Below, one piece after another: positions 2,160 through 44,700 of a DNA stretch of 64,000 bases. Each line of letters opens with the position of its first letter. Position 1 is the first letter of the stretch. Source of the DNA: an uncultured bacterium (GTDB lineage Bacteria; Patescibacteriota; Saccharimonadia; UBA4664; SCTI01). The notes beneath the pieces were generated by a model, which had not been told where the DNA came from, made no database searches, and saw only the letters and a program-made list of their open reading frames with translations. The DNA lies in assembly GCA_963721685.1 (NCBI GenBank), contig CAVRJJ010000005.1:167943-231942 (forward strand), given 5' to 3'. The position numbers were made by a program, and so were the translations under genes.

Positions 2160-2169
2160 GTTTTTGCTT

Positions 2170-2427
2170 TTAACCTATGCGCACAACCAGCCGCGACACC
2201 CCCATTTTTGCCAGGCCGTCCAAGAGCTCTACCTGGCCCAGCCGCAGTTCGCTAGCTAAGCTGGCGCTGGCAGTGGTTATCTTAAGAACACCTTCATTAA
2301 GACTGGTGGCGCGACACTGCCCGGCGTAGCGCCCATCAAGATAGCGCTGGATTTCACTTAGTTGGCTGGCCCGCTCAAGCCCAAGTTCATGTGCCCGCTT
2401 CTTTAAATAATCCCGCATGCTATCCAC
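2170..2427 (-). CDS. DUF721 (RemB/DciA-like) protein encoded immediately downstream of recF
   Basis: 85 aa. Position directly after recF in the dnaA-dnaN-recF array is the classic location of DUF721/DciA-type proteins. The start overlaps the recF stop. Confidence 0.55.
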   Translation of the reverse strand: MDSMRDYLKKRAHELGLERASQLSEIQRYLDGRYAGQCRATSLNEGVLKITTASASLASELRLGQVELLDGLAKMGVSRLVVRIG

Positions 2428-3490: not shown

Positions 3491-3611
3491 TATTTACAGT
3501 ATAGCCCTCGCGGCCTTGGGCGCGCCGTGGTAGAGCTTTTATGGCATGTCGGCAGCCGGCACGAGCCATGATGACCATGCTCAGAAAAGTTGCTACCCGG
3601 TAAGCCCGGCC

Positions 3612-32088: not shown

Positions 32089-33915
32089 ATGTGCGGGATT
32101 ATTGGCTATGTCGGGCCCCAAAAAGCAGCCCCCATACTGCTGTCCGGTTTGCGCCGCATGGAGTACCGCGGCTACGACTCGGCTGGAATGGCATTGTTGG
32201 ATAACCACTCCATTGAGCTGATTAAGCGTAAGGGTAAAATAGCGGAATTGGCGGCGGCGGTGCCCGACGGCGTGGCGGGAACAACCGGCATCGGCCATAC
32301 CCGGTGGGCGACCCACGGTAATCCCAGCGAACGTAACGCCCACCCGCACGTGGCTAGCAAAATCGCGTTGGTCCATAACGGTATTATTGAAAATTACGTC
32401 CAGCTCAAGGAAAAACTGGCAAAGGTGGGTGTTAAAACTTATAACAGCGATACCGATTCGGAGGTACTTGCCCATTTAATCAATCATGAGCTGAGTGAAG
32501 GCCGTAAGCTGCCGGAGGCGGTACGGCGCAGCCTGCAGCAGGTGGAGGGTACATTCGGCCTGGCGGTCATCAGTTCCGATGATCCCAACGTAATGGTGGC
32601 AGCCCGCCGTGGTAGCCCCTTGCTGTTGGGAATTGGCGAAGATGCCATGTTCATTGCCAGCGATGCCAGCGCCATTATTGGTTATACCGACCGTGTCGTG
32701 TACTTGGAAGACGATCAAGTCGCGGTTTGCCATGCCCGCCAGTACCGCTTATTTGACTTAAGTCGGCGCATTCACGAACCTTCAGTCACAACCTTAAAGC
32801 TTGAATTGGCCGCCATTGAGAAGGCCGGCTATGATCATTTCCTGCTAAAAGAAATTATGGAGCAGCCGGTATCGGTAGCCAACGCCTTGCGCGGCCGTCT
32901 TGATCTTAAGGGCGGAACCAGCCATTTGGGCGGGCTTAATGTACATGATAGCTTTTTGCGCCAACAGGAACGCTTCTTAATTATTGGCTGCGGCACAGCC
33001 TATTACGCGGGATTGGTAGGAAAGTACTTATTAGAGCGCATGACCGGAATTCCGGTGGATGTTGAAGTTGGCTCGGAGTTTCGTTACCGCGACCCAGCCT
33101 TAACGCCAGGAACGCTGGCTTTGCTGATTACCCAATCAGGGGAAACCGCCGACACGATGGCGTCATTAAAGGAGCTAAAGCGCCGCGGTGTCCCAACGTT
33201 GGGACTGGTTAATGTGGTGGGCTCTTCCATTGCCCGCGGGGTGGATGGGGGAGTGTATTTGCATGCCGGACCGGAGATATCGGTAGCTTCCACCAAGGCT
33301 TTCACCGCCCAAGTGGTTGGCCAGTTGATGGTTGGGTTGCAGGTGGGCAAGGCCCGCAATTTAAGCTTGCGGACAGGGCGTGAAATTGTACGGGCGTTGG
33401 AATCATTGCCGGAGGCCATTACCGAAGCGCTTAAACTGGCTCCGGAAGTAGAAAGGCTGGCTAAGAAGTACGCTAAATTTGAGCACGCCATGTACTTAGG
33501 CCGCGATAGCTTGTTCCCGGTAGCACTGGAGGGTTCGCACAAGCTCAAAGAATGTTCCTACATCCACGCCGAAGCCTATCCGGCCGGCGAGATGAAGCAC
33601 GGCGCCAACGCCTTAATAGACAAAGACTTACTTATGATATTTCTGGCACTCAAAAATGAGCTTTACGCTAAAACCATGAGTAACCTTCAGGAAGTGCGAG
33701 CGCGGGCCGGCACGGTAATCGCCGTGGCTACCGAAGGCGACACCGCTATTAAAAAGCAAGCCCAAGACGTTTTGTATGTACCTGATGTGTCTCCCTGGAT
33801 ACAACCTTTAGTCGCCAATATTCCCCTTCAACTTTTAGCTTATTATATTGCTGTCGAACGGGGGACGGACGTTGACCAGCCCCGCAATTTAGCGAAAAGC
33901 GTGACGGTGGAGTAG
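32089..33915 (+). CDS. glmS: Glutamine--fructose-6-phosphate aminotransferase
   Basis: N-terminal MCGIIGYVG (Ntn amidotransferase Cys2), two SIS domains and the C-terminal ...VE. Confidence 0.95.
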   Translation: MCGIIGYVGPQKAAPILLSGLRRMEYRGYDSAGMALLDNHSIELIKRKGKIAELAAAVPDGVAGTTGIGHTRWATHGNPSERNAHPHVASKIALVHNGIIENYVQLKEKLAKVGVKTYNSDTDSEVLAHLINHELSEGRKLPEAVRRSLQQVEGTFGLAVISSDDPNVMVAARRGSPLLLGIGEDAMFIASDASAIIGYTDRVVYLEDDQVAVCHARQYRLFDLSRRIHEPSVTTLKLELAAIEKAGYDHFLLKEIMEQPVSVANALRGRLDLKGGTSHLGGLNVHDSFLRQQERFLIIGCGTAYYAGLVGKYLLERMTGIPVDVEVGSEFRYRDPALTPGTLALLITQSGETADTMASLKELKRRGVPTLGLVNVVGSSIARGVDGGVYLHAGPEISVASTKAFTAQVVGQLMVGLQVGKARNLSLRTGREIVRALESLPEAITEALKLAPEVERLAKKYAKFEHAMYLGRDSLFPVALEGSHKLKECSYIHAEAYPAGEMKHGANALIDKDLLMIFLALKNELYAKTMSNLQEVRARAGTVIAVATEGDTAIKKQAQDVLYVPDVSPWIQPLVANIPLQLLAYYIAVERGTDVDQPRNLAKSVTVE

Positions 33916-33996
33916 CCTCAAATTTAATTGACATTTCGCTTTTTGTTCGCCATACTAAAACCAAACACTATTATTCATAATTATGAGGGAGGTTGC

Positions 33997-34617
33997 ATGG
34001 CGGAACCGCTGACAAAACGGCAAAAGGAGGTACTGGACTACGTAACCCAGTACATCGAAGTTAATGGGTACGCGCCAAGTTACCGCGAGATTGCCGAGGC
34101 GTTTCACCTTGGTTCAGTTGCCACCGTGGCCGACCATGTTGAAACTCTGGTTGCTAAAGGCTTACTGAAAAAAGGTGATAACTCTGCCCGTTCCCTGCAA
34201 TTGGTAAAAGAAGAAGATTTCAACAGCGACCATTTCGTTGGGCTGCCTATCCTTGGTATGATTGCCGCCGGCCAGCCCATCCAAACCATGACCGGCCACG
34301 CCGAAACCTTGGAGGTGCCCCAATTTATGGTAGGCACGAAGAATTCTTACGTGCTGCAAGTGAAGGGCGACTCGATGATTGAAGAAGGCATTTTTGAGGG
34401 GGATTACGTGGTCATCCAAGAGAAGGAAGTCCCTTCCAACGGGGATATGGTTGTGGCGCTTGTTAATAACGAAGAAGCGACCTTAAAGCGCTACTATAAG
34501 GAAAAGGGCCATACCCGGTTGCAGCCGTCAAACGACGCTTATGACCCTATCATTGTGCCAGCTTCCACCCCCTTAAAAATCCAAGGAGTATGCATTGGGG
34601 TCATCCGCAAATACTAA
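33997..34617 (+). CDS. lexA: LexA repressor
   Basis: N-terminal wHTH (LTKRQKEVLDYV), S24 peptidase Ser (KGDSM) and Lys (ATLKR). Strong RBS GAGGGAGG at 33985-33992. The track start at 33928 is an upstream in-frame ATG without an RBS. Confidence 0.9.
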   Translation: MAEPLTKRQKEVLDYVTQYIEVNGYAPSYREIAEAFHLGSVATVADHVETLVAKGLLKKGDNSARSLQLVKEEDFNSDHFVGLPILGMIAAGQPIQTMTGHAETLEVPQFMVGTKNSYVLQVKGDSMIEEGIFEGDYVVIQEKEVPSNGDMVVALVNNEEATLKRYYKEKGHTRLQPSNDAYDPIIVPASTPLKIQGVCIGVIRKY

Positions 34618-34722: not shown

Positions 34723-34752
34723 TTGACCAGATAGAGCCGGGAATCGTATACT
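34723..34752 (+). promoter_or_regulatory. Putative sigma70-type promoter of tRNA-Asn
   Basis: TTGACC (34723-34728) - 18 nt - TATACT (34747-34752), 18 nt upstream of the tRNA 5' end. Confidence 0.4.
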
Positions 34753-34770: not shown

Positions 34771-34845
34771 TCCGGCGTAGCTCAGTGGTAGAGCAGTTGA
34801 CTGTTAATCAATTGGTCGCAGGTTCGAATCCTGCCGCCGGAGCCA
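34771..34845 (+). tRNA. tRNA-Asn (anticodon GUU), CCA encoded
   Basis: Manual fold: acceptor TCCGGCG/CGCCGGA, D arm GCTC-AGTGGTA-GAGC, anticodon arm GTTGA-CTGTTAA-TCAAT (GTT), T arm GCAGG-TTCGAAT-CCTGC, discriminator G, CCA. Confidence 0.9.
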
Positions 34846-34932
34846 AAGGCGAGAAGATAACTTCTGTTATCGCCTCGCCTTTTGTTTTGGCAGGCAGGCT
34901 CCAAACCTAGGTTCGGTGGATGAGGAAATAGA
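34839..34932 (+). repeat. Direct repeat copy 1 (tRNA 3' end GGAGCCA + terminator hairpin + ~50 bp), bracketing the GAF cassette
   Basis: About 80% identical to 35569..35663. Both begin with GGAGCCAAAGGCGAGAAGATAAC and share ...AAACCTRGGTTCGGTGGATGAGGAAAT. Confidence 0.7.
34848..34888 (+). terminator. Rho-independent terminator after tRNA-Asn
   Basis: GGCGAG-AA-GATAAC TTCT GTTATC-GC-CTCGCC followed by TTTTGTTTT. Confidence 0.6.
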
Positions 34933-35050
34933 ATACAACGACTAAGCCAGACGTACACGTGGTATACTTCGATTAATATATACTTCAAGTATCACGTCCT
35001 ATTATTAACAAGGGGAGCATGCCATTAAAACAAGCATTCTAGATGATGAG

Positions 35051-35476
35051 TTGAAGCAAATCCGAGAGTTAGACAAAATCACCAGCGATGCGTCAGAATT
35101 CTTTAATGTCCCTTACGCGATGATAAATCTCGTAACATCGGATAGAGTTATATTCAAGTCTTGTACTGGTCTGGTTGTGGGCGATTCATTGGATCGTAAT
35201 GGTTCATTTTGCTCAGCGGCTTCGCAAAAAGATAGTCCGCTGGTCATAAAAGATGCGACTCAGGACTCTTACTTTAAAACTAATCCGCTGGTCGTTGGAA
35301 GCTTAAAAATACGATCATATGCTGGAAAATCATTACATGCACCTGACGGCACACGGATGGGCACTCTCTGCCTCCTCGATACAGTACCAAGAGATTACAC
35401 GAAGGAGCAGCTTCGTTCTTTGACGGACCGGGCAAAGCTGGCGAGCATAACGCTACATGCGATTTTAACTACCTAG
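35051..35476 (+). CDS. Stand-alone GAF-domain protein
   Basis: 141 aa with a GAF-like pattern of conserved Gly/Cys/Asp. TTG start with a weak RBS; the start is uncertain. Confidence 0.5.
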   Translation: MKQIRELDKITSDASEFFNVPYAMINLVTSDRVIFKSCTGLVVGDSLDRNGSFCSAASQKDSPLVIKDATQDSYFKTNPLVVGSLKIRSYAGKSLHAPDGTRMGTLCLLDTVPRDYTKEQLRSLTDRAKLASITLHAILTT

Positions 35477-35568
35477 CCAATTGCGCCTGGTGCCGCGGTG
35501 CGCAACATCCCCAACAATTTCTTTTGTGGTCATGGCAGGTTAAGCAGTTTGAAAATCGTCCCAGATGG

Positions 35569-35663
35569 GGAGCCAAAGGCGAGAAGATAACATCGGTTAT
35601 CGCCTCGCCCTTTGTTTTAGATGGAGGGATGCGAAACCTGGGTTCGGTGGATGAGGAAATGGA
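35569..35663 (+). repeat. Direct repeat copy 2, including a second terminator hairpin with covarying loop (ATCG instead of TTCT)
   Basis: GGAGCCAAAGGCGAGAAGATAACATCGGTTATCGCCTCGCCCTTTGTTTT... The stem is preserved and the loop changed. Confidence 0.7.
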
Positions 35664-35717
35664 TGAGAATGCACGCCAGTATATTCTTTCCAATGACGAA
35701 GGAGGTGGCGAAGCCAC

Positions 35718-35747
35718 AATCCTGCCGCCAGAGCCATTGCACTTATG
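35718..35747 (+). repeat. att-like junction 1: 19-nt copy of the tRNA-Asn 3' half (AATCCTGCCGCCaGAGCCA, 1 mismatch) fused to TTGCACTTATG
   Basis: Compared by eye to 34827-34845 of the tRNA. Confidence 0.65.
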
Positions 35748-35825
35748 CCTGTTCCATCATTCTGTTATTGTTAACGAATGCGGAGACATCCATAAATAGC
35801 ATCGCTTATTCTCGCAGTAATATTA

Positions 35826-36239
35826 GTGCCCTCTCTTTTTTTCGGCTTTCAAGCAGTCAAAGAGGAAAGTACTAAGAGTAATATAAAATCGGAGCTAGCT
35901 TCATTTAAAACCCCCAATGGTTGCACAGAAGTCGACAGAGCTTACCAAGCAGGAGGAATTGATGTTAAGTCCTTATGGTACGTTTACTATGAGTGCAGTG
36001 CCACGGTAGGGGTCATTCATTCTGACTTAATGAGTGCTTTGAAGAAAAATGGCTATATTGTCAGTGATGACCCTTTTGACAAAGAAGAGCATTTTGACCG
36101 GCACCTCAGCATTCCATTTTATAAATCACAAGAGTATTTGGCTTCCTGCGCCTTTGATTTTTCAGAATGGGAAGAAAGTGGTAAAACTTTTGAAAATCGT
36201 AATGTCAAAAAGATCACTCTTTCTCTAAGAAAAATATAA
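35826..36239 (+). CDS. Hypothetical protein (cassette gene)
   Basis: 137-aa ORF downstream of junction 1. No recognizable domain; start uncertain. Confidence 0.4.
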   Translation: MPSLFFGFQAVKEESTKSNIKSELASFKTPNGCTEVDRAYQAGGIDVKSLWYVYYECSATVGVIHSDLMSALKKNGYIVSDDPFDKEEHFDRHLSIPFYKSQEYLASCAFDFSEWEESGKTFENRNVKKITLSLRKI

Positions 36240-36357
36240 GCATTTAGAGTAGATTTCTTCCAGACCCTGTTTTACGCACCGAAGGTAGCGGTTAGTCGCT
36301 TAGCTTCCTCTAAATCACAATCAAACTCTGTTTCTTTGTTCTGGAACAAGACCGCTA

Positions 36358-36378
36358 GGGGGAGCCATTGCACTTATG
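36358..36378 (+). repeat. att-like junction 2 (GGGGGAGCCATTGCACTTATG)
   Basis: Motif copy preceded by CGCTAGGG, as at junction 6. Confidence 0.55.
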
Positions 36379-36383
36379 TTTGC

Positions 36384-38156
36384 TCAATTCAAGTTAAAAG
36401 AAAAATTGTCAGGATTTATATCATAGTCTGGAGCAAGTTTTTTAAATTCGGCTAAGAAAATACGATGAGCTTGGACTTTTAGTTGCGGAGGTACTTTTTG
36501 GCCTTCTGCTAAGCCAAGTCTCTGTAAGGTTCTACTTCCTGCCTCTTCAAGGGCTTTAGTGCGATGGCTGGTTAGCGATTCGGGTGCGTCCGTGGTCGGT
36601 TCACTTCCTAAGGCAATCCCTTCAGCTATTTGCGTAGGGATTTTAGGTGACGGCCTACCGACAAAAGCTTCTTGTAAATCTTCGGGCAAAGCCTTTACTA
36701 GTTCAAGAATTTTATCGGCCTCCGCGTCGCTCGCGTATAAAACGATGCCGTCAGCCCGCAATGATATCTTCTCGCCGCGTGCTGCTCGTTGTGTATCCTG
36801 GCATAGTTCCATAGCCCGATCCAGCATTTTGCCGTGGACTGTCAGACCTGATTCATTAGCTGCCTTCATAAGCGCTGAAAAAACCTTTACAGAATCCTCG
36901 GGTCTCGGGTTCAGGTAAATCCGCTTGGTCATTTCAGTATTTTGATTTCGCCCTTCCGCTTTAGCCTTAGCGTAGGAGTCACTTGACCAGTGAATAAATT
37001 GTCCTGAAACTTCTTCCTGAAAGCGTATATTAGGCCTTACCCCACGAACTTTGCCATCTGTGCTTAATATATTAATTGGTCTTGGTTCGCCGGGTATAGG
37101 AATAGGTAAGCCCTCAAACTGTATATCCTGTCCGCGAGCATGTGCACCAGCGGCAACTTTACTAAAGAATTCCCTTCCATCTGGATCGCCATCTCTTAGT
37201 TCTTGTTGATATCTAGTCCTGGCATCAACCAATAATTTCCTTTCGCCGCGACCGAGTTCGCCTGAAACCGCAATTTTTAAATTATCGGCGATCATTGCTC
37301 TGATTTGGCTATGAATATCAGCGAGCGTACCAGGCTTTTGGGCCGCTTCATAGTCATCCTGGGTCGCAGGCACTTTATCTAAAAATACCTTTAAGACGGT
37401 TGCTTCGCCTTCTGGATTTGTAAGCACTTCATTCAATAGATTCATAACGAAATCCTCGGAAAAGCCGCGCGATATTTTTTCAGCCTCTTCAAATGATGAG
37501 GCTCTAAATGGCAACTTTTCTTTTGATTTCGCTTCTTTTTCTTCTAAATCGACTAAGTCTTTGTATTCACCTAGCCTATAGTCATCATATCCCGGTGCTT
37601 TCAAGCGAATCATTTGCATCATAACTTTTTTTGCTATATTCACCTTTGCTAACTCTTCTTTGCGCCATTCTTTATCCTCACGGTTGGGACTGATACGGAC
37701 TGCATGTTCGCCATTGCTCCAAGCGTATCCAACATCAACGGCGTTCGCGCTTCCGCTTGCAATGATTTTTTGAGCGATGGCATCAATATCTGCGACATCA
37801 AGCTGGGTGGGGTAGATAGTACTTTCGGTATCTACGGGCTCTTCGGGTCTTTGATCTTCCGGGACACGCCTTCTAGTTTCCCTGACAACATTTAATAAGT
37901 TCTGGCTAGATCTATCGAATTCATCCGAATTAGTAATACTTTGAGCGACAGAATCTATAAGATTACCTCTGATGGTTTGAAGCTGTTCATCTGAGAATCG
38001 TTCGTAAGGATTTGGCGCTGTTTCGCTTTCTACTTTCGGCTGGCCAGCTTCGGGTTTTCCCTGTATAGCCTCAAGCTCTTCGGCCAAAGCTTCCCCTGAA
38101 AAGGTTTTAGTCTCAGATTGTGCTTCTGGTGTTGTAGTGCCCTCAGGATTACTCAT
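36384..38156 (-). CDS. Large acidic hypothetical protein (590 aa), no recognizable domain
   Basis: Long uninterrupted ORF with an E/D-rich N-terminus, possibly phage- or plasmid-derived. No catalytic motif identified by eye. Confidence 0.55.
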   Translation of the reverse strand: MSNPEGTTTPEAQSETKTFSGEALAEELEAIQGKPEAGQPKVESETAPNPYERFSDEQLQTIRGNLIDSVAQSITNSDEFDRSSQNLLNVVRETRRRVPEDQRPEEPVDTESTIYPTQLDVADIDAIAQKIIASGSANAVDVGYAWSNGEHAVRISPNREDKEWRKEELAKVNIAKKVMMQMIRLKAPGYDDYRLGEYKDLVDLEEKEAKSKEKLPFRASSFEEAEKISRGFSEDFVMNLLNEVLTNPEGEATVLKVFLDKVPATQDDYEAAQKPGTLADIHSQIRAMIADNLKIAVSGELGRGERKLLVDARTRYQQELRDGDPDGREFFSKVAAGAHARGQDIQFEGLPIPIPGEPRPINILSTDGKVRGVRPNIRFQEEVSGQFIHWSSDSYAKAKAEGRNQNTEMTKRIYLNPRPEDSVKVFSALMKAANESGLTVHGKMLDRAMELCQDTQRAARGEKISLRADGIVLYASDAEADKILELVKALPEDLQEAFVGRPSPKIPTQIAEGIALGSEPTTDAPESLTSHRTKALEEAGSRTLQRLGLAEGQKVPPQLKVQAHRIFLAEFKKLAPDYDINPDNFSFNLN

Positions 38157-38295
38157 ATACTCATTAAACGCTACCTATGCTTCAAAGTCTAACCTGGGAA
38201 ATAGCCGCGCGATTGACAAGTTTTCGCCAGGTTGAAGTAACTTCCCGATTTCTATCACCTCGTGCAGATATCCAGTTCGTAACGTCCGGGGCAAA

Positions 38296-38314
38296 GGGAG
38301 CCGTTGCACTTATG
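38296..38314 (+). repeat. att-like junction 3 (GGGAGCCGTTGCACTTATG)
   Basis: Motif copy in the divergent region between the 590-aa gene and the 171-aa gene. Confidence 0.55.
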
Positions 38315-38338
38315 TTTATAACCTGACACTATGAAGCT

Positions 38339-38854
38339 ATGATGAATCTCTATCATTTTGTTCCAGAAAACATGCAAGGGTCTGTTCTCTATTCACTTAA
38401 TGACATGAAGACAAAAATTCCCAAGCTTTTTAACCAACAGGCAGCTAAATATAAAGAGAGGGAGGAGGTGAAAGAAACGGCTATTCCGGGCTTAGGTGGC
38501 TGGAATGATGTTATCCATTTGTCTCCAATAGATCCGAACAAGGTTATGGCGGCGCTAAAAAATGCTAGTGTCCCGACCGACTTTGCATGGAAAGCGTTTC
38601 AGATCAACGCAGACACACTTGATTGGGCTAAGCTTATTATCATGGTGACTGTTAAAGACGAAGATGGTTACCACAAAGAGTTTCTGCCTTTTACCAAAGA
38701 GAACTACGAAAAGCACAATGACGTCCCCGAACTTACAAAGCAGTACTATTCAGAATGCGTTGCAAAAGGGGAACAGCCTTTAACCTATGGCGGTGCTCCT
38801 CATGTACTATATAAGGGCGTCATTGACACAAAAAGTTTGAAAATTATCTCTTAG
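38339..38854 (+). CDS. Hypothetical protein (171 aa)
   Basis: ORF directly after junction 3. No recognizable domain. Confidence 0.5.
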   Translation: MMNLYHFVPENMQGSVLYSLNDMKTKIPKLFNQQAAKYKEREEVKETAIPGLGGWNDVIHLSPIDPNKVMAALKNASVPTDFAWKAFQINADTLDWAKLIIMVTVKDEDGYHKEFLPFTKENYEKHNDVPELTKQYYSECVAKGEQPLTYGGAPHVLYKGVIDTKSLKIIS

Positions 38855-38877
38855 GGGGAGCCAATTTTGCATTTATA
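38854..38877 (+). repeat. att-like junction 3b, degenerate (GGGGGAGCCAATTTTGCATTTATAG)
   Basis: Starts at the stop codon of the 171-aa gene. Shares the GGAGCCA...TTGCA..TTAT skeleton. Confidence 0.4.
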
Positions 38878-39010
38878 GACGCCAAAGCTGCCTCTTCTAA
38901 GGGTAGCTCTCTGTTATGGGTTGGAGTCATTTAGATATGCAGCACGCCATCTTTTATTTTTTCTTCTAGCATAAGGAAAAAGGAAAAAATATATTTCAAA
39001 AAGCTAATGA

Positions 39011-39080
39011 TGACGACATATGATACGACATAGTATTAATAGAGTTGACATAGGACACGACATAGTGTAGTATTAAGACA
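39011..39080 (+). repeat. Two tandem ~32-bp iteron-like units with GACATA cores (39015, 39027, 39047, 39059) upstream of the DUF4325 gene
   Basis: GACATATGATACGACATAGTATTAATAGAGTT / GACATAGGACACGACATAGTGTAGTATTAAGA. Core spacing 12/20/12. Confidence 0.55.
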
Positions 39081-39082
39081 TT

Positions 39083-40111
39083 ATGACTATTCAGGAACAG
39101 ATTCAAGCTGTCGCCAAAAACAAGAAAGTTTTCAAAACTTCAGACGTAGCCAAGGAAGCACCAGAGTTTTCAAGGCAATACATTAGTTCGATAATTAGCG
39201 ATCAAGTAAGAAAAGGTACCCTCGTAAGGGAGGGATCAGGTCGCTGGTCTACTTACGCGCTTCCACAATATAAAGATTATTTAGGCCATAGATTACGAAG
39301 GCGCCTAAAGCTTAATGGCCTCAAAGAGCATGAAGTACTTGACGATATCATGCGGGTTAGTACCTTGCTAACAAGGATACCTGAAAATATTCAAAGCATA
39401 TTCAACTATGCTTTTTCTGAAATGCTAAATAACGCCATAGATCACTCTCGCTCTAAAAATGCTGTAACTGAAGTCATAGAAGAAGATGAAGGGCTCAAAT
39501 TCATAGTTGATGACTTCGGGGTTGGGGTTTTCCGTAATGTTATGCAAGAAAGGAACCTTAACTCTGAGCTAGAGGCAATCCAGGACTTACTTAAAGGCAA
39601 AACAACTACAGCCCCTCAGGCCCATTCAGGCGAAGGTATTTTCTTTACTTCTAAAGCAGCCGATGTGTTTATGCTAGAAAGCTTTGGTTTAAGATTAAGA
39701 ATAGACAATAAGATTAAAGATATTTTCGTGGAAGAGGTTGGCACGGAGAAAAAGGGTACCAGAGTAACTTTTGAAGTTTCCACAAAATCAAAGAAGCACT
39801 TAGCAGATTTATTCGCTAAATATCAGACTCACTCTGAAGAACCAGCGTTTGATAAGACCGAAATCCAAGTAAGGCTTTACACCATGGGTACTATCTATGT
39901 CTCCAGGTCACAGGCTAGAAGGGTGTTAACTGGTCTGAACAAATTTCGCACAGTAATCCTTGATTTCGAAAATGTTCCAACTATTGGGCAAGCATTTGCA
40001 GACGAGATTTTTAGAGTATTCAAAAATGCGAATCCAAATATCACAATTAAGATCGCAAACGCGAATGAGGCAGTTCAGTTTATGATTATACGATCCCAGT
40101 CATCCAGTTGA
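39083..40111 (+). CDS. wHTH - GHKL (RsbW/SpoIIAB-like) ATPase - STAS-like (DUF4325) single-chain protein
   Basis: N box FSEMLNNAIDHS, G1 IVDDFGVGV, G2 HSGEGIFFTS. The C-terminus TVILDFENVPTIGQAFADEIF resembles an anti-sigma-antagonist/DUF4325 fold. N-terminal ~90 aa is helical and basic. Confidence 0.65.
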   Translation: MTIQEQIQAVAKNKKVFKTSDVAKEAPEFSRQYISSIISDQVRKGTLVREGSGRWSTYALPQYKDYLGHRLRRRLKLNGLKEHEVLDDIMRVSTLLTRIPENIQSIFNYAFSEMLNNAIDHSRSKNAVTEVIEEDEGLKFIVDDFGVGVFRNVMQERNLNSELEAIQDLLKGKTTTAPQAHSGEGIFFTSKAADVFMLESFGLRLRIDNKIKDIFVEEVGTEKKGTRVTFEVSTKSKKHLADLFAKYQTHSEEPAFDKTEIQVRLYTMGTIYVSRSQARRVLTGLNKFRTVILDFENVPTIGQAFADEIFRVFKNANPNITIKIANANEAVQFMIIRSQSSS

Positions 40112-40150
40112 CATAAGATTTAGACATAGAATTTTAGTTGCCGACATAAC
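40106..40150 (+). repeat. Iteron-like GACATA units downstream of the DUF4325 gene (cores at 40110, 40123, 40143)
   Basis: TTGACATAAGATTTAGACATAGAATTTTAGTTGCCGACATAAC. Same 13/20 spacing and orientation as the upstream array. Confidence 0.5.
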
Positions 40151-40181
40151 ATCCAATTTATTGATATGGCATGTTCACTGC

Positions 40182-40201
40182 GGAGAGCCATTGCACTTAT
40201 G
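40182..40201 (+). repeat. att-like junction 4 (GGAGAGCCATTGCACTTATG)
   Basis: Motif copy adjacent to the 3' end of the minus-strand DUF1905 gene. Confidence 0.55.
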
Positions 40202-40202
40202 T

Positions 40203-40514
40203 TTAGAACTCTCGCAACTTGAAAGATATGCGTACTTTATCACCTAGCTCAAGCTTTTCGCTTTTTCGCACCTTAGTATTTATAGCAATGAAGTGTGTGC
40301 CATCGCCCATAGGCAGCAGGGAGGTTGGCCAGGTACTACTTCCTAGGGTTGCCTCAACAGCAATCAACCCCCGGTCTGCAAGTTCATGCAGCGGTTGACT
40401 AACGCTCAACGGTGCGGCGACATAATACCAACCCCCTTCCTGGGGGAAAAGTTGCAGTACCCCACTAAAGCTAAATGGCTTCATGAGCCAATTATATATG
40501 ATGATCAATAGCAA
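40203..40514 (-). CDS. DUF1905-like small protein (N-terminal half of a YdeI-type protein)
   Basis: 103 aa with a pattern that fits DUF1905 (GGWYYVAAP ... HFIAIN ... GDKVRISF). Confidence 0.5.
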   Translation of the reverse strand: MLLIIIYNWLMKPFSFSGVLQLFPQEGGWYYVAAPLSVSQPLHELADRGLIAVEATLGSSTWPTSLLPMGDGTHFIAINTKVRKSEKLELGDKVRISFKLREF

Positions 40515-40548
40515 TCTTTATCTTGATAGCTTTTAGAACGGCTAAAAC

Positions 40549-41457
40549 ATGCTTGCTATAATGAGCGGGATGCCAGAACCAACTCAGCCAAATTATTCCA
40601 AGCAAATAAGTTCAGATTTTCCTAACTTGGTTGTTGAAAAAGTAGAAAAACTTGGTACGGGTTGGGATCATGTTGCGCTGGAAGTAAATGATTCTTTGAT
40701 CTTCCGTTTTCCGCGGGATATTTCTGATGTAGATGAGATTTCCCAGACTGTCGTTTACGAGACGAAGGTATTGCGGCATCTGCAGGACAAACTGCCCGTT
40801 GCTATACCGGACCCACAGCATATTGCTCCCGATCATGCTTATTTTGGCTATCCAAAACTCCAAGGCGAAAAGCTCATTGATATTTTGCCAAGCTTTAGCG
40901 AAGCTGACAAAGCCGCCTTGTGGGACGATTGGGTGGATATAGCGACTGCCATTCATCAGAATGTATCTGTTGATATGGCTCGCAAACTTGGTGTGCCGAA
41001 CTTGGATATTCATATAGAGACAGCAAAGGAGGTTTTCAGCTTAGAAAATATTGACTCTCAGGTTGTAAGCTTTGCCCAGAATACTATAGAAGCGGCGGAA
41101 GCAATTGACATGAATAAGCTGCCACTTTTGTTTATCCATAACGACCTACAATTTCATAATTTGCTCGTCGACCCTGAAACAAAACGGGTTATCGCGGTCA
41201 TTGACTGGACAGATGTTTGTATAGGTACGACGGAGAGGGAGTTAGCAATGTGGGAGTGGTGCCATGATGATCAGCTAGATGAAGTGGCTAAAAGATATAC
41301 AGCTAAGACAGGTAGGGCGGTTGACAGAGACCAGGCAAAAGTTTTTAGGAAGATTGAAGAAGTAGGCGATTACGTCGAGCAGATAAAAAGTGGTGATCTT
41401 GAAGGGGTCGAAGAATCCTTAGCACATATTCGAAAATGGATTGCCGAAGTCGCATGA
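40549..41457 (+). CDS. Aminoglycoside/choline-kinase-like phosphotransferase (APH family)
   Basis: Catalytic loop HNDLQFHNLLVD and the Mg-binding IDWTDVCIG (Brenner motif and DFG-like D). Confidence 0.7.
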   Translation: MLAIMSGMPEPTQPNYSKQISSDFPNLVVEKVEKLGTGWDHVALEVNDSLIFRFPRDISDVDEISQTVVYETKVLRHLQDKLPVAIPDPQHIAPDHAYFGYPKLQGEKLIDILPSFSEADKAALWDDWVDIATAIHQNVSVDMARKLGVPNLDIHIETAKEVFSLENIDSQVVSFAQNTIEAAEAIDMNKLPLLFIHNDLQFHNLLVDPETKRVIAVIDWTDVCIGTTERELAMWEWCHDDQLDEVAKRYTAKTGRAVDRDQAKVFRKIEEVGDYVEQIKSGDLEGVEESLAHIRKWIAEVA

Positions 41458-41505
41458 GGTATACGCGTCCATTTTGCGTAATATTATGAATGATATGATA
41501 ATGCA

Positions 41506-41853
41506 ATGAGCCACTTGGAAACCTTTTTTATCCTAAGTCTCGCAACGCAATTAGTCCATTCAATTGAAGAGTTAACAACGGGTTTTCACAAACAATACTA
41601 TCTCTTTAAGATGTCCTTTAAGGCATTTCTAGCCTTTGAAATATTATTTACCCTGTTCTGGGTGGGAGTGCTTCTGCTGCCAGACTCTCCGTCCAAGGGC
41701 TACCTGCAAGCTTTCTTCCTCATCCTGATGTTTGCCAATGGTGTGCAACATCTAGTGTGGTGGGGAACTGTAAAAAAGTATGTTCCGGGTTTAATAACGG
41801 CTTTCGTCCATGCCGCACTATTTTTGGCCTTTTACTATAAGAGCATTTTTTAA
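41506..41853 (+). CDS. HXXEE-domain small membrane protein
   Basis: HSIEEL motif near the N-terminus and 3-4 transmembrane helices. Confidence 0.45.
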   Translation: MSHLETFFILSLATQLVHSIEELTTGFHKQYYLFKMSFKAFLAFEILFTLFWVGVLLLPDSPSKGYLQAFFLILMFANGVQHLVWWGTVKKYVPGLITAFVHAALFLAFYYKSIF

Positions 41854-42527
41854 TGGCATACTACAAACGTTTTCAACTTGTTACCCACTTTTTTCTCTGG
41901 CCTCGGCTGCTTGCGTGGTTTTACCGCAAAGGCATGGATGACGTTAAGAGTCTTGGGCTTAAACCTGACTTTAACAAGGAAGATTTTTCCTGTCTGCTCT
42001 GCGGGGTGAGCGGAGAAATAACAGCCGAGGTCTTCATTAACTTTGTTATCAGTAAAAATAAGCAAGCCAACATTATCATTATTGATCTTGGCGAAGAACA
42101 GGTAGCCGCTGTTCAGTCGCTCGTAAACCGGAAATACAAAGATCATAACATTAGCGTTAAACAAATGAACGTCCTCGATATATCAAAGCATTTTAAGCCA
42201 AACTCCTTTGATTGGATTGAAACGGACGGTCTGGTTGAATACTTAGACAAGCCAGGAATTCAAAGTCTATTAACGCAATGGAAAGCGTTGCTAAGACCGG
42301 GCGGCTTCATTACTACCCGTGACTTTGCCAGCTCATCTATACCAGGCCGATTACTCGATAAGTTTCGTATGTGGTTTATGAAAAATTACCTAACCCTCAA
42401 TGGCTACGTTCATACCAAGCAGGAACTAGATGAGGCATTTAGAAAAATCGGCTTTATCTTTAATTCCGGGCCGACGCCAATCCCGACCTTCAAGCGTTAT
42501 GCGCTCATAGAAAAGGACACTCGCTAA
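41853..42527 (+). CDS. Class I SAM-dependent methyltransferase-like protein
   Basis: Rossmann-like IIIDLGEEQ / NVLDISKHF segments, about 224 aa. Start overlaps the upstream stop. Confidence 0.5.
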   Translation: MAYYKRFQLVTHFFLWPRLLAWFYRKGMDDVKSLGLKPDFNKEDFSCLLCGVSGEITAEVFINFVISKNKQANIIIIDLGEEQVAAVQSLVNRKYKDHNISVKQMNVLDISKHFKPNSFDWIETDGLVEYLDKPGIQSLLTQWKALLRPGGFITTRDFASSSIPGRLLDKFRMWFMKNYLTLNGYVHTKQELDEAFRKIGFIFNSGPTPIPTFKRYALIEKDTR

Positions 42528-42716
42528 GAGGTGGGGAGGAATCAATAATTGAAATACCAACACACACCGAAGCCGATCTAATTAAGTTTAATGAGGTATT
42601 TTCTTTCCTATCATAAGTGGCACTTTCGGGATCAGCCAGAAGGTAAGAGTAGTCGCTTAGTATGGTATAGGTCCAAATCAAACGCTGTTCCTTTGTTCGG
42701 AAGCAAGTCAACCAGT

Positions 42717-42734
42717 GGAGCCATTGCACTTATG
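42717..42734 (+). repeat. att-like junction 5 (GGAGCCATTGCACTTATG)
   Basis: Motif copy 47 bp upstream of the pilin-like gene. Confidence 0.55.
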
Positions 42735-42780
42735 CTTATATTATTGCTACACTGAGCTTAATTAACTCAAGAGAGCACTC

Positions 42781-43320
42781 ATGATAAAGCTGAACCAAAA
42801 GGGATTTACCGGCTTTGAAGTTGTATTAATCGTTATTGCCCTGGTAGCTATTGGAGCAGCGGGCTACTTCGCGTATGAAGCGCGGCAAGATAAAACCGTT
42901 CTTGTAGCCGCACCAAAGAAAACAGAGAAGACGATTCAAGCTCAACCACAGCCTGTAAGTAGTAAGCCAGAAACAACTAGTGTTTATAATATTAAAGATC
43001 TTGGAGTTGAATTTGCGCTGCCCTCAAGTATCTCCGATCTATCGTATAAAGTCGTCAACTTAGGTGGTGAGCAAGCGGTTAGCTCTGTGACTTTTTCAAC
43101 TAAGCGGTTGGAAGCGGCAGGCTGTTCACTTGATTCAGCGCCTCTTGGACATTTAACATATACGGAAGGAAAGGGAGGTATTCTAGTTGCCTCCGCGAGA
43201 GGATCCAACCTTTATTATATAGAGCCCAAAGGAAGCTGTAGCGCAGACCCAAGCCTTAGAAACTGGCAGAAGCTGAAGGAAGCTCTCAAAACTACTGTGA
43301 GTGACTACAAGGGAGGGTAA
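42781..43320 (+). CDS. Prepilin-type (type IV pilin / ComGC-like) N-terminal cleavage/methylation protein
   Basis: MIKLNQKG|FTGFEVVLIVIALVAIGAAGYFAY: Gly at -1, Phe at +1, Glu at +5, then a hydrophobic helix. Confidence 0.6.
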   Translation: MIKLNQKGFTGFEVVLIVIALVAIGAAGYFAYEARQDKTVLVAAPKKTEKTIQAQPQPVSSKPETTSVYNIKDLGVEFALPSSISDLSYKVVNLGGEQAVSSVTFSTKRLEAAGCSLDSAPLGHLTYTEGKGGILVASARGSNLYYIEPKGSCSADPSLRNWQKLKEALKTTVSDYKGG

Positions 43321-43423
43321 GTAAAGCTGGCTCGTTGGGTGGGCCAGTCGGGAGCCATAAATAGTAGACTCAGCTCATTGACTGGGCATCGGCCGGCAAA
43401 TTAGATGCCTCTTTCTAGCTATT

Positions 43424-43675
43424 TCAACGATGATCGCAGCCGGCCCAGCAACAGGGACGGCGCATTCCCTCTATAAGCTCCGTGCGCGTTCTTTCAATAC
43501 GCCGTGCCCTCGTCTCAGTCTTCTTAGCTTCTTCAACCCAGCATATCCATTCATTGCGCGCCAGCGGTGTAATATCTTCCCATGCCGCTAAAGCCGTCGA
43601 GGTAGAAAGCAGGGCTTTTTTTAAGTCCGCTGGCATTTCGTGTGCCACACCCCCAGCGATTTCTTTTGTAGCCAT
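43424..43675 (-). CDS. YdeI/OmdA C-terminal-domain protein
   Basis: ITPLARNEWICWVEEAKKTETRARRIERT matches the OmdA/YdeI C-terminal pattern. Confidence 0.5.
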   Translation of the reverse strand: MATKEIAGGVAHEMPADLKKALLSTSTALAAWEDITPLARNEWICWVEEAKKTETRARRIERTRTELIEGMRRPCCWAGCDHR

Positions 43676-43710
43676 AAACTTATACTACTCCAGGCTACAA
43701 GTAACACGCT

Positions 43711-43727
43711 AGGGCATTGCACTTATG
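43711..43727 (+). repeat. att-like junction 6, degenerate (AGGGCATTGCACTTATG) followed by TGTTATAAT
   Basis: Preceded by CGCTAGGG as at junction 2. An extended -10-like TGTTATAAT lies downstream. Confidence 0.5.
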
Positions 43728-44700
43728 TTATAATTTGCTGGTGAAACCATTAGATTCTCCTCAAGCGGAGGCAGCTCAGATACAAAAGCAGACGAAGCAT
43801 TCCAAGCGCAAGCTTGCTGTAGTTGTTTTCATCCTACTGCTTGCTCTAGCTATAATTGGGATAGGCGGTACCTACCTCTATCGGGTGCAGCAAACTCAGA
43901 ACACAATAAAAGCCGGAATACACGACCTTAGCCAGTCGGCTAATCGAATTACGCCTTTTACGGCCGGAACGGTAGCTGAGGGTGACCGCGCGGATTTCAC
44001 TCGTGAGCTCAACAATCTCGAGAATACAATCAATGATACCCAGTTCAAAATAGACCAGCATTCCTCCCTATTGAATTCAAAAAAGGCTATGGATGAATAT
44101 AAATCCTTTCTTTCTCAAATGGAGGGGTATGTTAAGCTGGCATCCGGCATGAGCAAAGATGTGTCGGTTATAACGGAAGCTGATCTTAAGAAGCTCAATC
44201 AGTCGGGGGACGCGGCTAAGCGTTCACAGGAAAAGCTAAGAGAGAATTTTACTTTTATTCCGGAGTCTTTATCGAATGAAGTGTTTAATATATCGCTTAT
44301 TTTACAAAAGTCGAAAAAAAGCATAGATGATACGAAGTTGGCCGAAGACGCAAAAGCAAAGTCGGAAGAGAAGTTGCAAATAGACCAGAGAACCGCCGAG
44401 ACCAATGCCGCGGCTTTCCTCGACGCTTTTATTGCAGGTAATGCCGACAGGATGAAACGCTATATGACCGCCGCATTTATCAAAGAGTACGACTTCGCCA
44501 ACATTAAGCCCGAGTATCGCGAGGTATCTACCCCCGTATCCTACCGGGTGGTTCAAAGCCAGCGGGTGAATAGTACCATCGAGGTTACCTCAACAGTCAC
44601 ATACGCTTATGGCCAGGGCCAGAGTACAGCCAACTACAAATATATTTTGGTTGAAGACCCTAAAGCCGCGACATGGATGATCAACGCCCAAGCGCAGTAA
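43717..44700 (+). CDS. Hypothetical membrane-anchored protein (327 aa)
   Basis: N-terminal transmembrane helix, then a coiled-coil-like region and a C-terminal domain. TTG start inside junction 6. Confidence 0.45.
   Translation: MHLCYNLLVKPLDSPQAEAAQIQKQTKHSKRKLAVVVFILLLALAIIGIGGTYLYRVQQTQNTIKAGIHDLSQSANRITPFTAGTVAEGDRADFTRELNNLENTINDTQFKIDQHSSLLNSKKAMDEYKSFLSQMEGYVKLASGMSKDVSVITEADLKKLNQSGDAAKRSQEKLRENFTFIPESLSNEVFNISLILQKSKKSIDDTKLAEDAKAKSEEKLQIDQRTAETNAAAFLDAFIAGNADRMKRYMTAAFIKEYDFANIKPEYREVSTPVSYRVVQSQRVNSTIEVTSTVTYAYGQGQSTANYKYILVEDPKAATWMINAQAQ

Follow-up and report, generated by a model that had tools for sequence, protein, structure and literature searches.

SCC/SCCmec elements are moved by Ccr large serine recombinases into the 3' terminus of a single conserved gene; successive elements form tandem stacks with direct repeats of ~18 bp between them, and psiSCC and ACME units without recombinase genes still lie between repeats (PMC7029136). 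The tycheposon islands of Prochlorococcus adjoin tRNA genes, where repeated integrations push older material outward and partial-tRNA/att repeats and degraded remnants are scattered; some tycheposons use a large serine recombinase (LSR), in a streamlined host that has few mobile elements of other kinds (bioRxiv 10.1101/2020.12.28.424599). Compared with attP, the attB sites of LSR systems have the zinc-ribbon-domain motif 5 bp nearer the center (Rutherford et al. 2013, PMC3783163).

The locus analyzed here, a ~9-kb patchwork of small foreign gene cassettes with unrelated accessory functions downstream of tRNA-Asn, appears to resemble both SCC composite islands and tycheposon islands. As in SCC, LSR elements would occupy the 3' end of one gene in tandem, bounded by repeats and with some recombinase-free units. 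In contrast to SCC, a tRNA 3' end replaces rlmH as the target, in a CPR host; the units measure 0.5-2.5 kb and often hold one gene (versus 10-60 kb in SCC), and the 3' end of the recombinase gene, where present, overlaps the tRNA. The tRNA-adjacent island, the repeated integrations, the att repeats and remnants, the involvement of an LSR, and the streamlined host with its scarcity of other mobile elements are shared with tycheposons or some of them; tycheposons, however, are defined by a common set of hallmark genes (replication genes and, for the most part, tyrosine recombinases), none of which was seen here, and our junctions are far denser and carry P-type half-sites with a +5 spacing instead of partial tRNAs. 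The LSR of sister genomes has the Resolvase, Recombinase, and zinc ribbon domains of phage-type serine integrases (A118/LI, Bxb1, phiC31), and the sites likewise span ~40-50 bp with the outer box 5 bp farther out in the element half-site (PMC3783163), whereas the tRNA-end target, the serial attR-type sites, and a box that is clear on left arms only set the locus apart from them. Small, mostly single-gene cassettes at an anchored site, bounded by repeats and with no recombinase nearby, recall integrons and CALINs. The integron resemblance proposed in the initial annotation nevertheless breaks down, as IntI is lacking, the junctions neither form imperfect palindromes nor fold like attC sites, cassettes point either way with some operons among them, and the anchor is a tRNA end and not an attI with a Pc promoter.

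Within the window, the whole 64-kb stretch of DNA analyzed, ARAGORN places tRNA-Asn(GTT) at 34771-34845 (+ strand), with the 3' end ...CGCCGGAGCCA and a sigma-70-like promoter at 34723-34752 (two-hexamer scan). The last ~20 nt of the tRNA (GTTCGAATCCTGCCGCCGGAGCCA) probably constitute the B half-site of the attachment site, with the GTTC box positioned 24 nt before the CCA end. The array that follows has a GC content of 0.40-0.45 versus ~0.50-0.55 in the flanks (about 0.52). Six exact copies of TTGCACTTATG, all on the + strand (35737, 36368, 38304, 40191, 42724, and 43717), fall within 35737-43727, inside the interval flagged initially, and none occurs elsewhere in the 64 kb. Allowing ≤1 mismatch, the whole window holds 8 matches versus 1.14 +/- 1.04 in shuffles, a count reached by 0 of 100 shuffles. 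GGAGCCA or a one-base variant stands at 34839, 35569, 35730, 36361, 38297, 38857, 40184, and 42717, the variants including GGAGCCg at 38297, GAGAGCCA at 40184, and aGAGCCA at 35730, which is preceded by 12 further tRNA bases to give the 19-nt AATCCTGCCGCCaGAGCCA. Thus, every motif position reported initially was recovered, as was the upstream sequence shared by two copies (CGCTAGGG at 36350 and 43703), and a degenerate copy was added at 43351-43357. The statement that each copy starts with GGAGCCA or a one-base variant holds for the listed sites except 43711, where GGAGC is deleted and the sequence reads CGCTAGGG-CA-TTGCAC.

As first described, the copies occupy intergenic gaps between cassettes of 1 to 4 ORFs in either orientation. 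Cassette 1 (34846-35575, +) opens with the tRNA terminator hairpin (34846-34891), holds a GAF-domain gene (35051-35476) and a 5' fragment of an OmdA-like gene (35498-35533, -), and is closed by the P-type left arm of junction J1 (35547-35575, +; GTTTGAAAATCGTCCCAGATGGGGAGCCA, 29 nt). The J1 right arm (35576-35663, +) is a direct repeat of the tRNA-downstream sequence 34846-34932 (84-93% identical by repeat search), so that cassette 1 was probably inserted into a tRNA+AAGGCGAG... target. The tRNA-Asn of the window now runs into AAGGCGAG..., unlike the other right arms, and right arms also differ among lineages (AAGGCGAG, GGAATTAT, TGCAATTAT, and TTGCACTTAT); both points weigh against an LSR origin. 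J2 (35718-35752, +) joins the 19-nt tRNA-Asn 3' fragment, a B-type arm, to a B' arm (TTGCACTTATGCC); it reads as a relic of an older tRNA end or attB, and a pure LSR model does not account for its origin. Another B-type arm is found at position 5930 of L080, and neither is the product of a crossover internal to GGAGCCA, which speaks against that model.

Cassette 2 (35753-36337, +) holds an ORF of 137 aa (35826-36239) without a Pfam family and ends at J3 (36338-36383, +; P arm GTTCTGGAACAAGACCGCTAGGGGGAGCCA, 30 nt, then TTGCACTTATGTTTGC). The cassette 3 gene (36384-38156, -) encodes 590 aa with a HopA1-like domain (PF17914, 4.5e-08). It is followed by J4 (38275-38320, +; P arm GTTCGTAACGTCCGGGGCAAAGGGAGCCG, 29 nt, then TTGCACTTATGTTTATAAC), which belongs to the GTTCGTAA class also seen at the distal LSR-island end of L076. 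The cassette 4 gene (38339-38854, +) encodes 171 aa without a Pfam family, and J5 (38835-38880, +) has a 29-nt P arm of the J1 class (GTTTGAAAATTATCTCTTAGGGGGAGCCA) and a degenerate right arm (ATTTTGCATTTATAG). The cassette 5 gene (39083-40111, +; 342 aa) combines a HATPase-like domain with DUF4325 (STAS-like) in Pfam, and J6 (40184-40210, +) consists of GAGAGCCA and TTGCACTTATGTTTAGAAC without a canonical P arm. Four genes assigned by Pfam make up cassette 6 (40203-42527): a DUF1905 gene (40203-40514, -), an APH-family phosphotransferase (40549-41457), an HXXEE gene (41506-41853), and a SAM methyltransferase (41853-42527).

J7 (42695-42740, +; P arm GTTCGGAAGCAAGTCAACCAGTGGAGCCA, 29 nt, then TTGCACTTATGCTTATATT) precedes a gene with a pilin-like N-terminus (42781-43320, +; 179 aa), whose homologues come after the last junction in L076, L002, and L003 (tblastn). 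Since this gene is the usual distal neighbor in sister genomes, J7 is probably the oldest attR. J8 (43351-43357, +) is the degenerate GGGAGCCA followed by TAAATAG. The OmdA/YdeI-family gene (43424-43675, -; Pfam) is kept near the distal side of tRNA-Asn arrays in L002, L003, L064, L068, L080, and L082 (tblastn), and J9 (43703-43735, +) reads CGCTAGGG-CA and then TTGCACTTATGTTATAAT, having lost GGAGC from its core. Altogether, five window junctions have a P arm (J1, J3, J4, J5, and J7), three are degraded (J6, J8, and J9), and one is the true tRNA-end relic (J2). Two points count against LSR scars here: no recognizable P arm was found in J6, J8, and J9, and no dyad-symmetric outer box was convincingly shown on the junction right arms.

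The conserved stretch is longer than the 18-mer. When 15 TTGCAC-type junctions of five genomes are compared, high information content is seen at -6 to +15/+17 and in a second block at -30 to -22, a GTTC(T/G)AA box. The resulting footprint, -30 to +17 or ~47 bp, matches the sum of an attP half-site (25), an attB half-site (20), and the center. GTTC stands 24 nt before the CCA end in each of the 14 true tRNAs examined, compared with 29 nt in 22 junction left arms and 30 nt in one more. In the window, GTTY exactly 29 nt upstream of a GAGCCR end occurs four times, always in the array and on the + strand, where ~0.09 would be expected for the array's 11 GAGCCR sites; a fifth array GTTY sits at 30 nt. 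This +5-nt spacing matches the attP/attB shift known for LSRs and points to the junctions as attR-type scars. Most left arms are not tRNA copies but appear to be element-derived P half-sites. The earlier reading of them as tRNA 3' remnants therefore survives for the 19 nt at 35718-35736 and fails for most of the others. Likewise, the sequence after GGAGCCA had been taken as foreign, but TTGCACTTATG directly follows an intact tRNA-Asn in L003, so it is better read as the native chromosomal right half-site B' (TTGCACTTATGYTTA).

Sister Saccharimonadia genomes place an enzyme at this site. At least four lineages (L065/66/67, L078, L072-74, and L076/77) have an LSR gene against the 3' end of tRNA-Asn; the 3' ends of the two genes overlap, and the Resolvase, Recombinase, and Zn_ribbon_recom domains of the LSR all exceed Pfam cutoffs; phmmer found no related solved structure at E≤0.001. 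In a sample of seven lineages drawn through the neighboring LexA gene, without regard to recombinase, the LSR was present in two. Comparison with an empty tRNA-Asn site, as suggested initially, was informative: L065 joined across its island aligns unbroken to the L064 tRNA plus ~50 nt downstream, and thus an 8.8-kb island was inserted precisely after CCA. The distal ends of LSR islands (L065 19706, L072 3744, and L076 4211) have the same anatomy as the window junctions, and in L003 an intact tRNA-Asn leads directly into TTGCACTTATAC, with four more junctions within 2.7 kb. An independent replicate is provided by L075, where a 56%-identical LSR overlaps tRNA-His. The island end, 10 kb away, has GTTC 29 nt from CTCGCCCCA and then AAGAACTTATGCTTAAA, the same motif as in tRNA-Asn right arms, and ACTTATGCTTAAA, near-identical to TTGCACTTATG, flanks this island of the homologous recombinase, in keeping with a chromosomal origin of the motif. 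The att-type junctions and the sister LSR islands at the same site bear out the initial proposal of serial site-specific insertion at the tRNA-Asn 3' end.

That the window itself lacks a recombinase was also borne out. None was detected among the 50 ORFs scanned with Pfam (the remaining ORFs, at 19.4-30.7 kb, were judged by eye from translations alone), tblastn with the sister recombinase gave no match even at E≤10, and the 64 kb yielded neither an LSR or other recombinase nor a directionality factor. Consequently, the link to an enzyme rests on the sister genomes, where the search beyond the window could name its class. Classic tyrosine-integrase islands, or integron or CIME-type accretion, with the repeats as attL/attR identity segments, would account for J2, since a displaced true 19-nt tRNA 3' end is the usual signature of such integrases, and tRNA genes are their commonest targets (bioRxiv 10.1101/2020.12.28.424599). 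A gene just beyond the L065 island even has a weak Phage_integrase match. That gene, however, is missing from the window and from all other loci compared, the Pfam-scanned ORFs of the window include no tyrosine recombinase, the enzyme physically on site in several lineages is an LSR, and the fixed 5-nt longer spacing of most left arms fits LSR site architecture and not tRNA copies. With no attC-like folding of the junctions (z-scores -0.8 to +0.7) opposing its integron form as well, we consider this explanation improbable.

A regulatory origin is more improbable still. The motif would then be a promoter, a transcription factor site, or a terminator-promoter module that had multiplied through homologous recombination or local duplication and not through site-specific recombination. 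TGnTATAAT-like boxes do follow several right arms, such as the extended -10-like TGTTATAAT of J9 (43727-43735); in L003, TGTTATGAT stands 6-9 nt before ATG and the repeat contains a terminator hairpin; and right-arm repeats of 55-95 nt could sustain RecA-type exchange. Yet all copies keep the tRNA orientation whatever the direction of the next gene (minus-strand genes follow three), and the remaining 55 kb of the window lack the motif. When 596 Gb of genomes were scanned for GAGCCATTGCACTTATG, 35 contigs matched, 32 of them singletons in unrelated taxa and three from Saccharimonadia; two of the three have the copies immediately 3' of tRNA-Asn, and L002, a contig beginning at GAGCCA, has two copies. 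Metagenomes gave the same picture. Among Saccharimonadia contigs, the motif is therefore confined to the tRNA-Asn neighborhood and is not an ordinary genome-wide promoter. The outward promoter suggested initially gained no backing from the two-hexamer scan, with 18 sites versus 16.9 +/- 4.4 in shuffles and only one overlapping a junction; the extended -10-like boxes behind some junctions may still act as promoters. Finally, regulation leaves unexplained the P-arm box at exactly -29 and the presence of this type of junction at LSR-island ends.

Given the observed repeats with their footprint and spacing rule, the one precise insertion, and the occupation of this site by an LSR in sister genomes, we regard the interval as probably a composite genomic island built at one attB by LSR elements, which would also have made the window junctions. 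This attB would comprise the last ~20 bp of tRNA-Asn (B) and ~17-20 bp downstream (B', TTGCACTTATGYTTA in this lineage). LSR-encoding integrative elements would insert exactly at the GGAGCCA end of the tRNA, each insertion creating a hybrid attR at the end of the element away from the tRNA. This attR would have the P half-site of the element on the left (with its GTTC(T/G)AA box 29 nt before the CCA end), the shared GGAGCCA as the crossover place in the center, and the chromosomal B' half-site on the right. The junctions would then separate leftover cargo of 0.5-2.5 kb, low in GC and unrelated in function. The recombinase module was presumably lost from the locus in this genome, which would leave the array at rest unless an LSR comes in trans.

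It is important to consider that canonical LSRs recombine only attP with attB, and that attB is lost with a single integration. To arrive at nine junctions, extra steps would thus be required, such as alternative-attR excision, use of pseudo-attB sites, or deletions. As an unproven proposal, an integrated element could excise (with LSR and directionality factor) using any attR to its right, a step that would collect or leave older cassettes and give the tRNA a usable attB again. This route of accumulation, like any continuing movement of single cassettes, is one that we infer. So many attR-type sites in series would not be expected under a strict attP x attB rule.

A possible but doubtful alternative is an active integron-like platform, each small cassette moving as a unit that has the P-core-B' junction as its one recombination site, with an LSR from elsewhere in the genome or from a visiting element inserting circles at the tRNA attB. 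Because the right arm of the cassette is B', each insertion would regenerate attB, and the array would grow from the tRNA end. The five sites of L003, including the tRNA, share a ~55-nt right arm (TTGCACTTATRCTTAAACGAC-hairpin-TGTTATGAT) around single-gene cassettes of 0.5-0.9 kb, and in the window a right arm of 95 nt, common to the tRNA and J1, encloses the GAF cassette. Furthermore, L002 and L006 have one and the same kinase gene behind different right arms, identical P-arm classes recur behind unrelated genes, and LSR-free arrays retain a B'-like arm beside the tRNA. On the contrary, the LSRs studied so far do not recombine an attR-type site with attB (PMC3783163), the right arms of the window cassettes are only ~15 nt, and both orientations with 1-4 genes per cassette are as in leftover cargo. 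Among minor features of the array, CGACATA repeats lie on both sides of the cassette 5 gene, and ~65 nt farther upstream of J3 show 72% identity to the region upstream of J7.

The junctions that follow the tRNA-Asn gene of the window are best read as attR-type hybrid sites, in which an element half-site (P) and the chromosomal right half-site (B') would flank the core GGAGCCA. The array as a whole would be a composite island built by repeated visits of large serine recombinase (LSR) elements to one attB, now without the recombinase. The anchor, tRNA-Asn(GTT) at 34771-34845, is served by a good sigma-70-like promoter (34723-34752), has a terminator hairpin immediately after its CCA and lies downstream of GlmM (30751-32085), GlmS (32089-33915) and LexA (33928-34617), the last gene before it. 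From 34846 to approximately 43735, the GC content is 0.40-0.45, compared with roughly 0.50-0.55 in both flanks. The right-arm motif TTGCACTTATG, of the TTGCAC type, occurs in the window in six exact copies (35737, 36368, 38304, 40191, 42724 and 43717), all on the forward strand; allowing up to one mismatch, there are 8 matches in the 64 kb against 1.1 +/- 1.0 in shuffles. Five of these six copies are preceded by GGAGCCA or by a variant that differs at one base; at 43711, five bases of GGAGCCA are missing. It also occurs without TTGCAC at the tRNA end, 35569 and 38857, and an extra degenerate copy lies at 43351. The copies described in the initial annotation were thus all found again, including, at 35718 (the second of the nine junctions J1 to J9), the 19-nt piece of the tRNA 3' end, which has a single mismatch.

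A genome scan for GAGCCATTGCACTTATG, using one genome per species for 185,579 species, returned 35 contigs, 32 of them with single matches in unrelated taxa and flanks without further similarity. The other three belong to Saccharimonadia: in L003 and L006, motif copies lie directly downstream of tRNA-Asn, and the L002 contig begins at GAGCCA and carries two copies. A scan of metagenomes contributed nothing beyond contigs of the L006 type and the new lineage L059, in which a junction lies about 200 nt downstream of tRNA-Asn. None of the 17 matches to GAGCCATTGCACTTAT in viral contigs had extended context, and these contigs, which hold a single distant (32%) relative of the LSR discussed below, revealed no phage origin for either the motif or the enzyme. 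The pattern search proposed earlier therefore does not depict a general genome feature or an ordinary gene-start promoter, as the Saccharimonadia copies sit at tRNA-Asn. A promoter or transcription-factor motif was also rejected because the copies are oriented with the tRNA, irrespective of the genes, the motif does not occur elsewhere and promoter-like sites show no enrichment; promoter and terminator site counts at 34.5-44.5 kb did not exceed those of shuffles. Furthermore, since the intact tRNA-Asn of L003 runs directly into TTGCACTTATAC, TTGCACTTATG is native to the region downstream of tRNA-Asn in this lineage and not foreign, as had been supposed. Four further junctions follow in L003 within 2.7 kb, one gene being bounded by each.

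No recombinase domain was detected by Pfam among 50 ORFs of the window, and tblastn with the sister LSR gave no match there even at E<=10. Consequently, the absence of a recombinase noted initially holds across the 64 kb. The ORFs outside the Pfam scan (19.4-30.7 kb) correspond by translation to a glycosyltransferase, a flippase, an epimerase, an aminotransferase, a nucleotidyltransferase and VanW. Sister loci were reached via the neighboring LexA, in seven lineages chosen without reference to the recombinase. All seven show LexA, sometimes a CMAS-type methyltransferase, and then tRNA-Asn; LexA is a conserved upstream neighbor of this hot spot in the window (33928-34617) and in all sister loci. 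Two of the seven, L065 (with copies L066 and L067) and L078, which is among the closest long-contig relatives of the window, carry on the strand opposite tRNA-Asn a 523-aa gene whose final ~30 nt overlap the tRNA 3' end. Because its Resolvase, Recombinase and Zn_ribbon_recom domains all score above the Pfam cut-offs, the product is an LSR. Homologues occupy the same position on tRNA-Asn in L072-74 (73% identical) and L076/77 (53% identical), and a 56%-identical LSR likewise overlaps tRNA-His in L075, a 1.1-Mb contig. The domain triad, absent from the window, is thus present at the same site in L065, L072, L076, L078 and L075. The islands behind the L072-74, L076/77 and L075 LSRs measure 7-10 kb and contain restriction-modification and other accessory genes; the tRNA-His island (~10 kb; 1414-1443 and 11573-11649) has Mrr_cat, HNH_5, DUF3644 and DUF5677 genes. 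In L076, a small HTH_17 gene (precomputed Pfam match) just upstream of the LSR hints at a candidate directionality factor. A weak Phage_integrase gene beyond the L065 island was dismissed as the array recombinase, being absent from all other loci. Relatives of the LSR at 42-48% identity are annotated in Streptomyces, Kitasatospora and Frankia in the homologue hit list, from which the family would reach beyond CPR bacteria; against PDB sequences, phmmer gave no match at E<=0.001.

The clearest view of the insertion point comes from L065. When its island was removed in silico, joining the tRNA side to the sequence past the distal junction, the product aligned without a break to the tRNA and ~50 nt downstream in the island-free L064 (...TGCGGAGCCA|TG(G/A)A(A/C)TTATCAGGTTAGAAATT...). 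This unbroken alignment indicates that the 8.8-kb LSR island was inserted exactly after CCA. There is, then, a precise insertion at a short shared core, after ...TGCGGAGCCA, with an empty site in a relative. The candidate attP would comprise L065 19678-19706 plus the sequence after 10913, and the candidate attB the 3' 25 nt of tRNA-Asn plus TGGAATTATCAGG... or TTGCACTTATGCTTAAAC. The final ~10-20 codons and the stop of the LSR lie opposite the tRNA 3' end (L065 10884-10913, L072 11555-11596, L076 11462-11491 and L075 11573-11638), so that the integrated gene would be completed by host sequence and the attP crossover would fall inside the recombinase reading frame.

Alignment of 28 junctions and 13 true tRNA ends, anchored at the CCA end and extended with one of each from L082, separated two kinds of left arm. 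The T-loop box GTTCGA(A/G) begins 24 nt from the CCA end in all 14 true tRNAs. A GTTC(T/G)AA-like box begins 29 nt from it in 22 junction left arms, and 30 nt in one (J3, 36338). The 29-nt arms include the distal LSR-island ends of L065, L072 and L076, the tRNA-His island of L075 and four window junctions with boxes at 35547, 38275, 38835 and 42695. GTTY at -29 from GAGCCR occurs four times in the window, always in the array and on the forward strand, where ~0.09 would be expected for the array's 11 GAGCCR sites. Since the left arms share only 7-10 nt with the tRNA (GGAGCCA plus 0-3), diverge beyond and have a constant spacing 5 nt longer, most of them are not decayed copies of the tRNA. The tRNA 3' remnants proposed initially therefore stand for J2 and fail for most other junctions; a tyrosine-integrase island is improbable, as J2 alone fits it. 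In LSR sites, the zinc-ribbon-domain motif of attB lies 5 bp nearer the center than it does in attP, and a minimal attB takes up ~10 bp less than an attP site (Rutherford et al. 2013, PMC3783163). The 24/29-nt spacing, with the outer box 5 bp further out in P than in B (the tRNA half-site) and seen for left arms only, conforms to this architecture.

Across 15 TTGCAC-type junctions, two stretches have high information content, from -6 to +15/+17 and from -30 to -22; the resulting ~47-bp footprint corresponds to an attP half-site and an attB half-site together. At the tRNA-His island of L075, the right arm (AAGAACTTATGCTTAAA) differs little from that of the window (TTGCACTTATGCTTA), which argues that this arm is a half-site read by the recombinase family. 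Left arms of the window fall into the classes GTTTGAAAAT, GTTCGTAA and GTTCGGAA/GTTCTGGAA. The second class agrees with the P arm that ends the L076 island, and the third is similar to the GTTCGAAA arm that ends the L072 island; the first recurs at L003 and L006 junctions and at none of the LSR-island ends examined. A dyad-symmetric outer box sought on right arms and LSR-proximal P' arms was too inconsistent to claim, with TTA(A/G)AAC ending at +18/+19 in some right arms and TTCGAGC-like strings at +17 in P' arms. J6 (40184), J8 (43351) and J9 (43703) are without P arms. J2 and one L080 junction have B-type arms with true tRNA spacing, and these are not products of crossover inside GGAGCCA.

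In sister genomes, the usual far-side neighbors of the site are pilin-like and OmdA genes, as found by tblastn. Since these genes follow J7 in the window, J7 (42695-42740) is probably the oldest junction, and the ~7.9 kb between tRNA-Asn and J7 would have been acquired. A canonical LSR recombines only attP with attB, and a single integration consumes attB. LSR elements would have integrated repeatedly at the single attB at the tRNA-Asn end, and the recombinase would since have been lost. Our best guess for the build-up of several attR sites is excision via an alternative attR, by which older cassettes would be shed or taken up and attB regained. Tolerance of poor right arms might also contribute to attR accumulation, because right arms differ widely between lineages. 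A different mechanism, which we consider rather unlikely, is an LSR-based, integron-like platform of CPR bacteria and Saccharimonadia, in which single-gene cassettes with one P-core-B' site are inserted in trans at the tRNA-Asn end and each insertion regenerates attB, so that cassettes stack, shuffle and pass between cells. The identical ~55-nt right arms at all five L003 sites, the 95-nt repeats on either side of the window GAF cassette and the same kinase gene following different right arms in L002 and L006 speak for such a platform; its LSR, however, would have to pair sites by rules that differ from those of the phage integrases characterized to date. Each L003 cassette (7150-4440, minus strand) begins with a right arm, which is followed by a hairpin resembling a terminator (AAACGAC...GTCGTTTTT) and, no more than 6-9 nt ahead of the ATG, by a TGnTATGAT/TGnTATCAT box; this arrangement suggests extended -10 promoters carried by the cassettes and leaderless mRNAs. 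The likeness to a true integron drawn initially does not hold, as IntI is lacking, the junctions do not fold and cassettes lie in both orientations. Neither IntI with attI and Pc nor any Phage_integrase match was found among the Pfam-scanned window ORFs, five junctions folded as single-stranded DNA gave z-scores of -0.82 to +0.69 against shuffles, and the repeat search reported no inverted repeats at the window junctions.

The putative composite island of LSR scars resembles two described systems. In SCC composite islands, units moved by LSRs accumulate at a single gene's 3' end, separated by direct repeats of ~18 bp, and a recombinase is missing from some of these units (PMC7029136). The window works alike but is not a member, since its target is tRNA-Asn rather than the rlmH 3' end and it has no ccr-type LSR, or any recombinase. 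The tycheposon-shaped, tRNA-anchored islands of Prochlorococcus (bioRxiv 10.1101/2020.12.28.424599) also work alike. Neither the ORFs scanned in the window nor the precomputed Pfam lists for the LSR islands included a primase, helicase or polymerase match, and only J2 is a true partial tRNA repeat. Unlike both, the present locus has as its target the very end of a tRNA, overlapped by the recombinase gene, and it occurs in another host clade, with much smaller units, much denser junctions and clearly preserved P half-sites. The literature on Saccharibacteria tRNA islands or serine recombinases yielded no description of the locus, although its coverage was incomplete and is no proof of absence.

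Saccharimonadia and other CPR bacteria have tiny genomes with few recognized mobile elements. A large share of the locally variable gene content appears to sit at a single tRNA-Asn hot spot served by one LSR family, with a phosphotransferase, methyltransferases and an effector-like protein in the window and restriction-modification genes in sister LSR islands. The locus thus offers a concrete place and a candidate enzyme for the study of gene flow in Saccharimonadia, and its natural series of B, P and B' half-sites, with the tRNA-His replicate, is a comparative data set on how LSRs read their sites. If the LSR tolerates attR-type substrates, this would matter for LSR-based genome engineering; otherwise, the locus is no more than an SCC-like composite island in a new host.

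The array ORFs are a mixture of unrelated families: a GAF domain protein, a 590-aa protein with a HopA1-like domain, a HATPase/DUF4325 protein (39083-40111), a DUF1905 protein, an APH-family phosphotransferase, an HXXEE protein, a SAM methyltransferase, a gene with a pilin-like N-terminus and an OmdA/YdeI gene, with several others matching no family. A PADLOC search for anti-phage defense systems with ten proteins of the 35-46 kb region, seven of them from the cassettes and three encoded just past the array, returned no match. On both sides of the HATPase/DUF4325 gene lie (C)GACATA(G) repeats (38990-39075 and 40110-40150), with CGACATA at 39014, 39026, 39058 and 40142 and looser GACATA copies nearby; they may be putative operators of this protein itself, whose N-terminus is winged-helix-like. 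Just upstream of J1 (35547), a 36-nt piece (35498-35533, minus strand) shares 81% identity with the OmdA gene's 5' end (43640-43675, minus strand) and would be the remnant of a second OmdA-like cassette end. Because the ~69 nt upstream of J3 (36293-36361) and of J7 (42650-42718) are 72% identical, these junctions seem to have a longer stretch of left arm in common, like the ends of related elements. In L072, the small cassette between two junctions (2165-3744) contains very short ORFs and an ATP-grasp MvdD-like gene and is possibly a microviridin-type peptide cluster. Finally, YidC (60KD_IMP; 7153-8032 of the window) is split into overlapping ORFs at 7153-7623 (profile 1-96) and 7529-8032 (profile 93-161), which suggests a frameshift or an assembly error.
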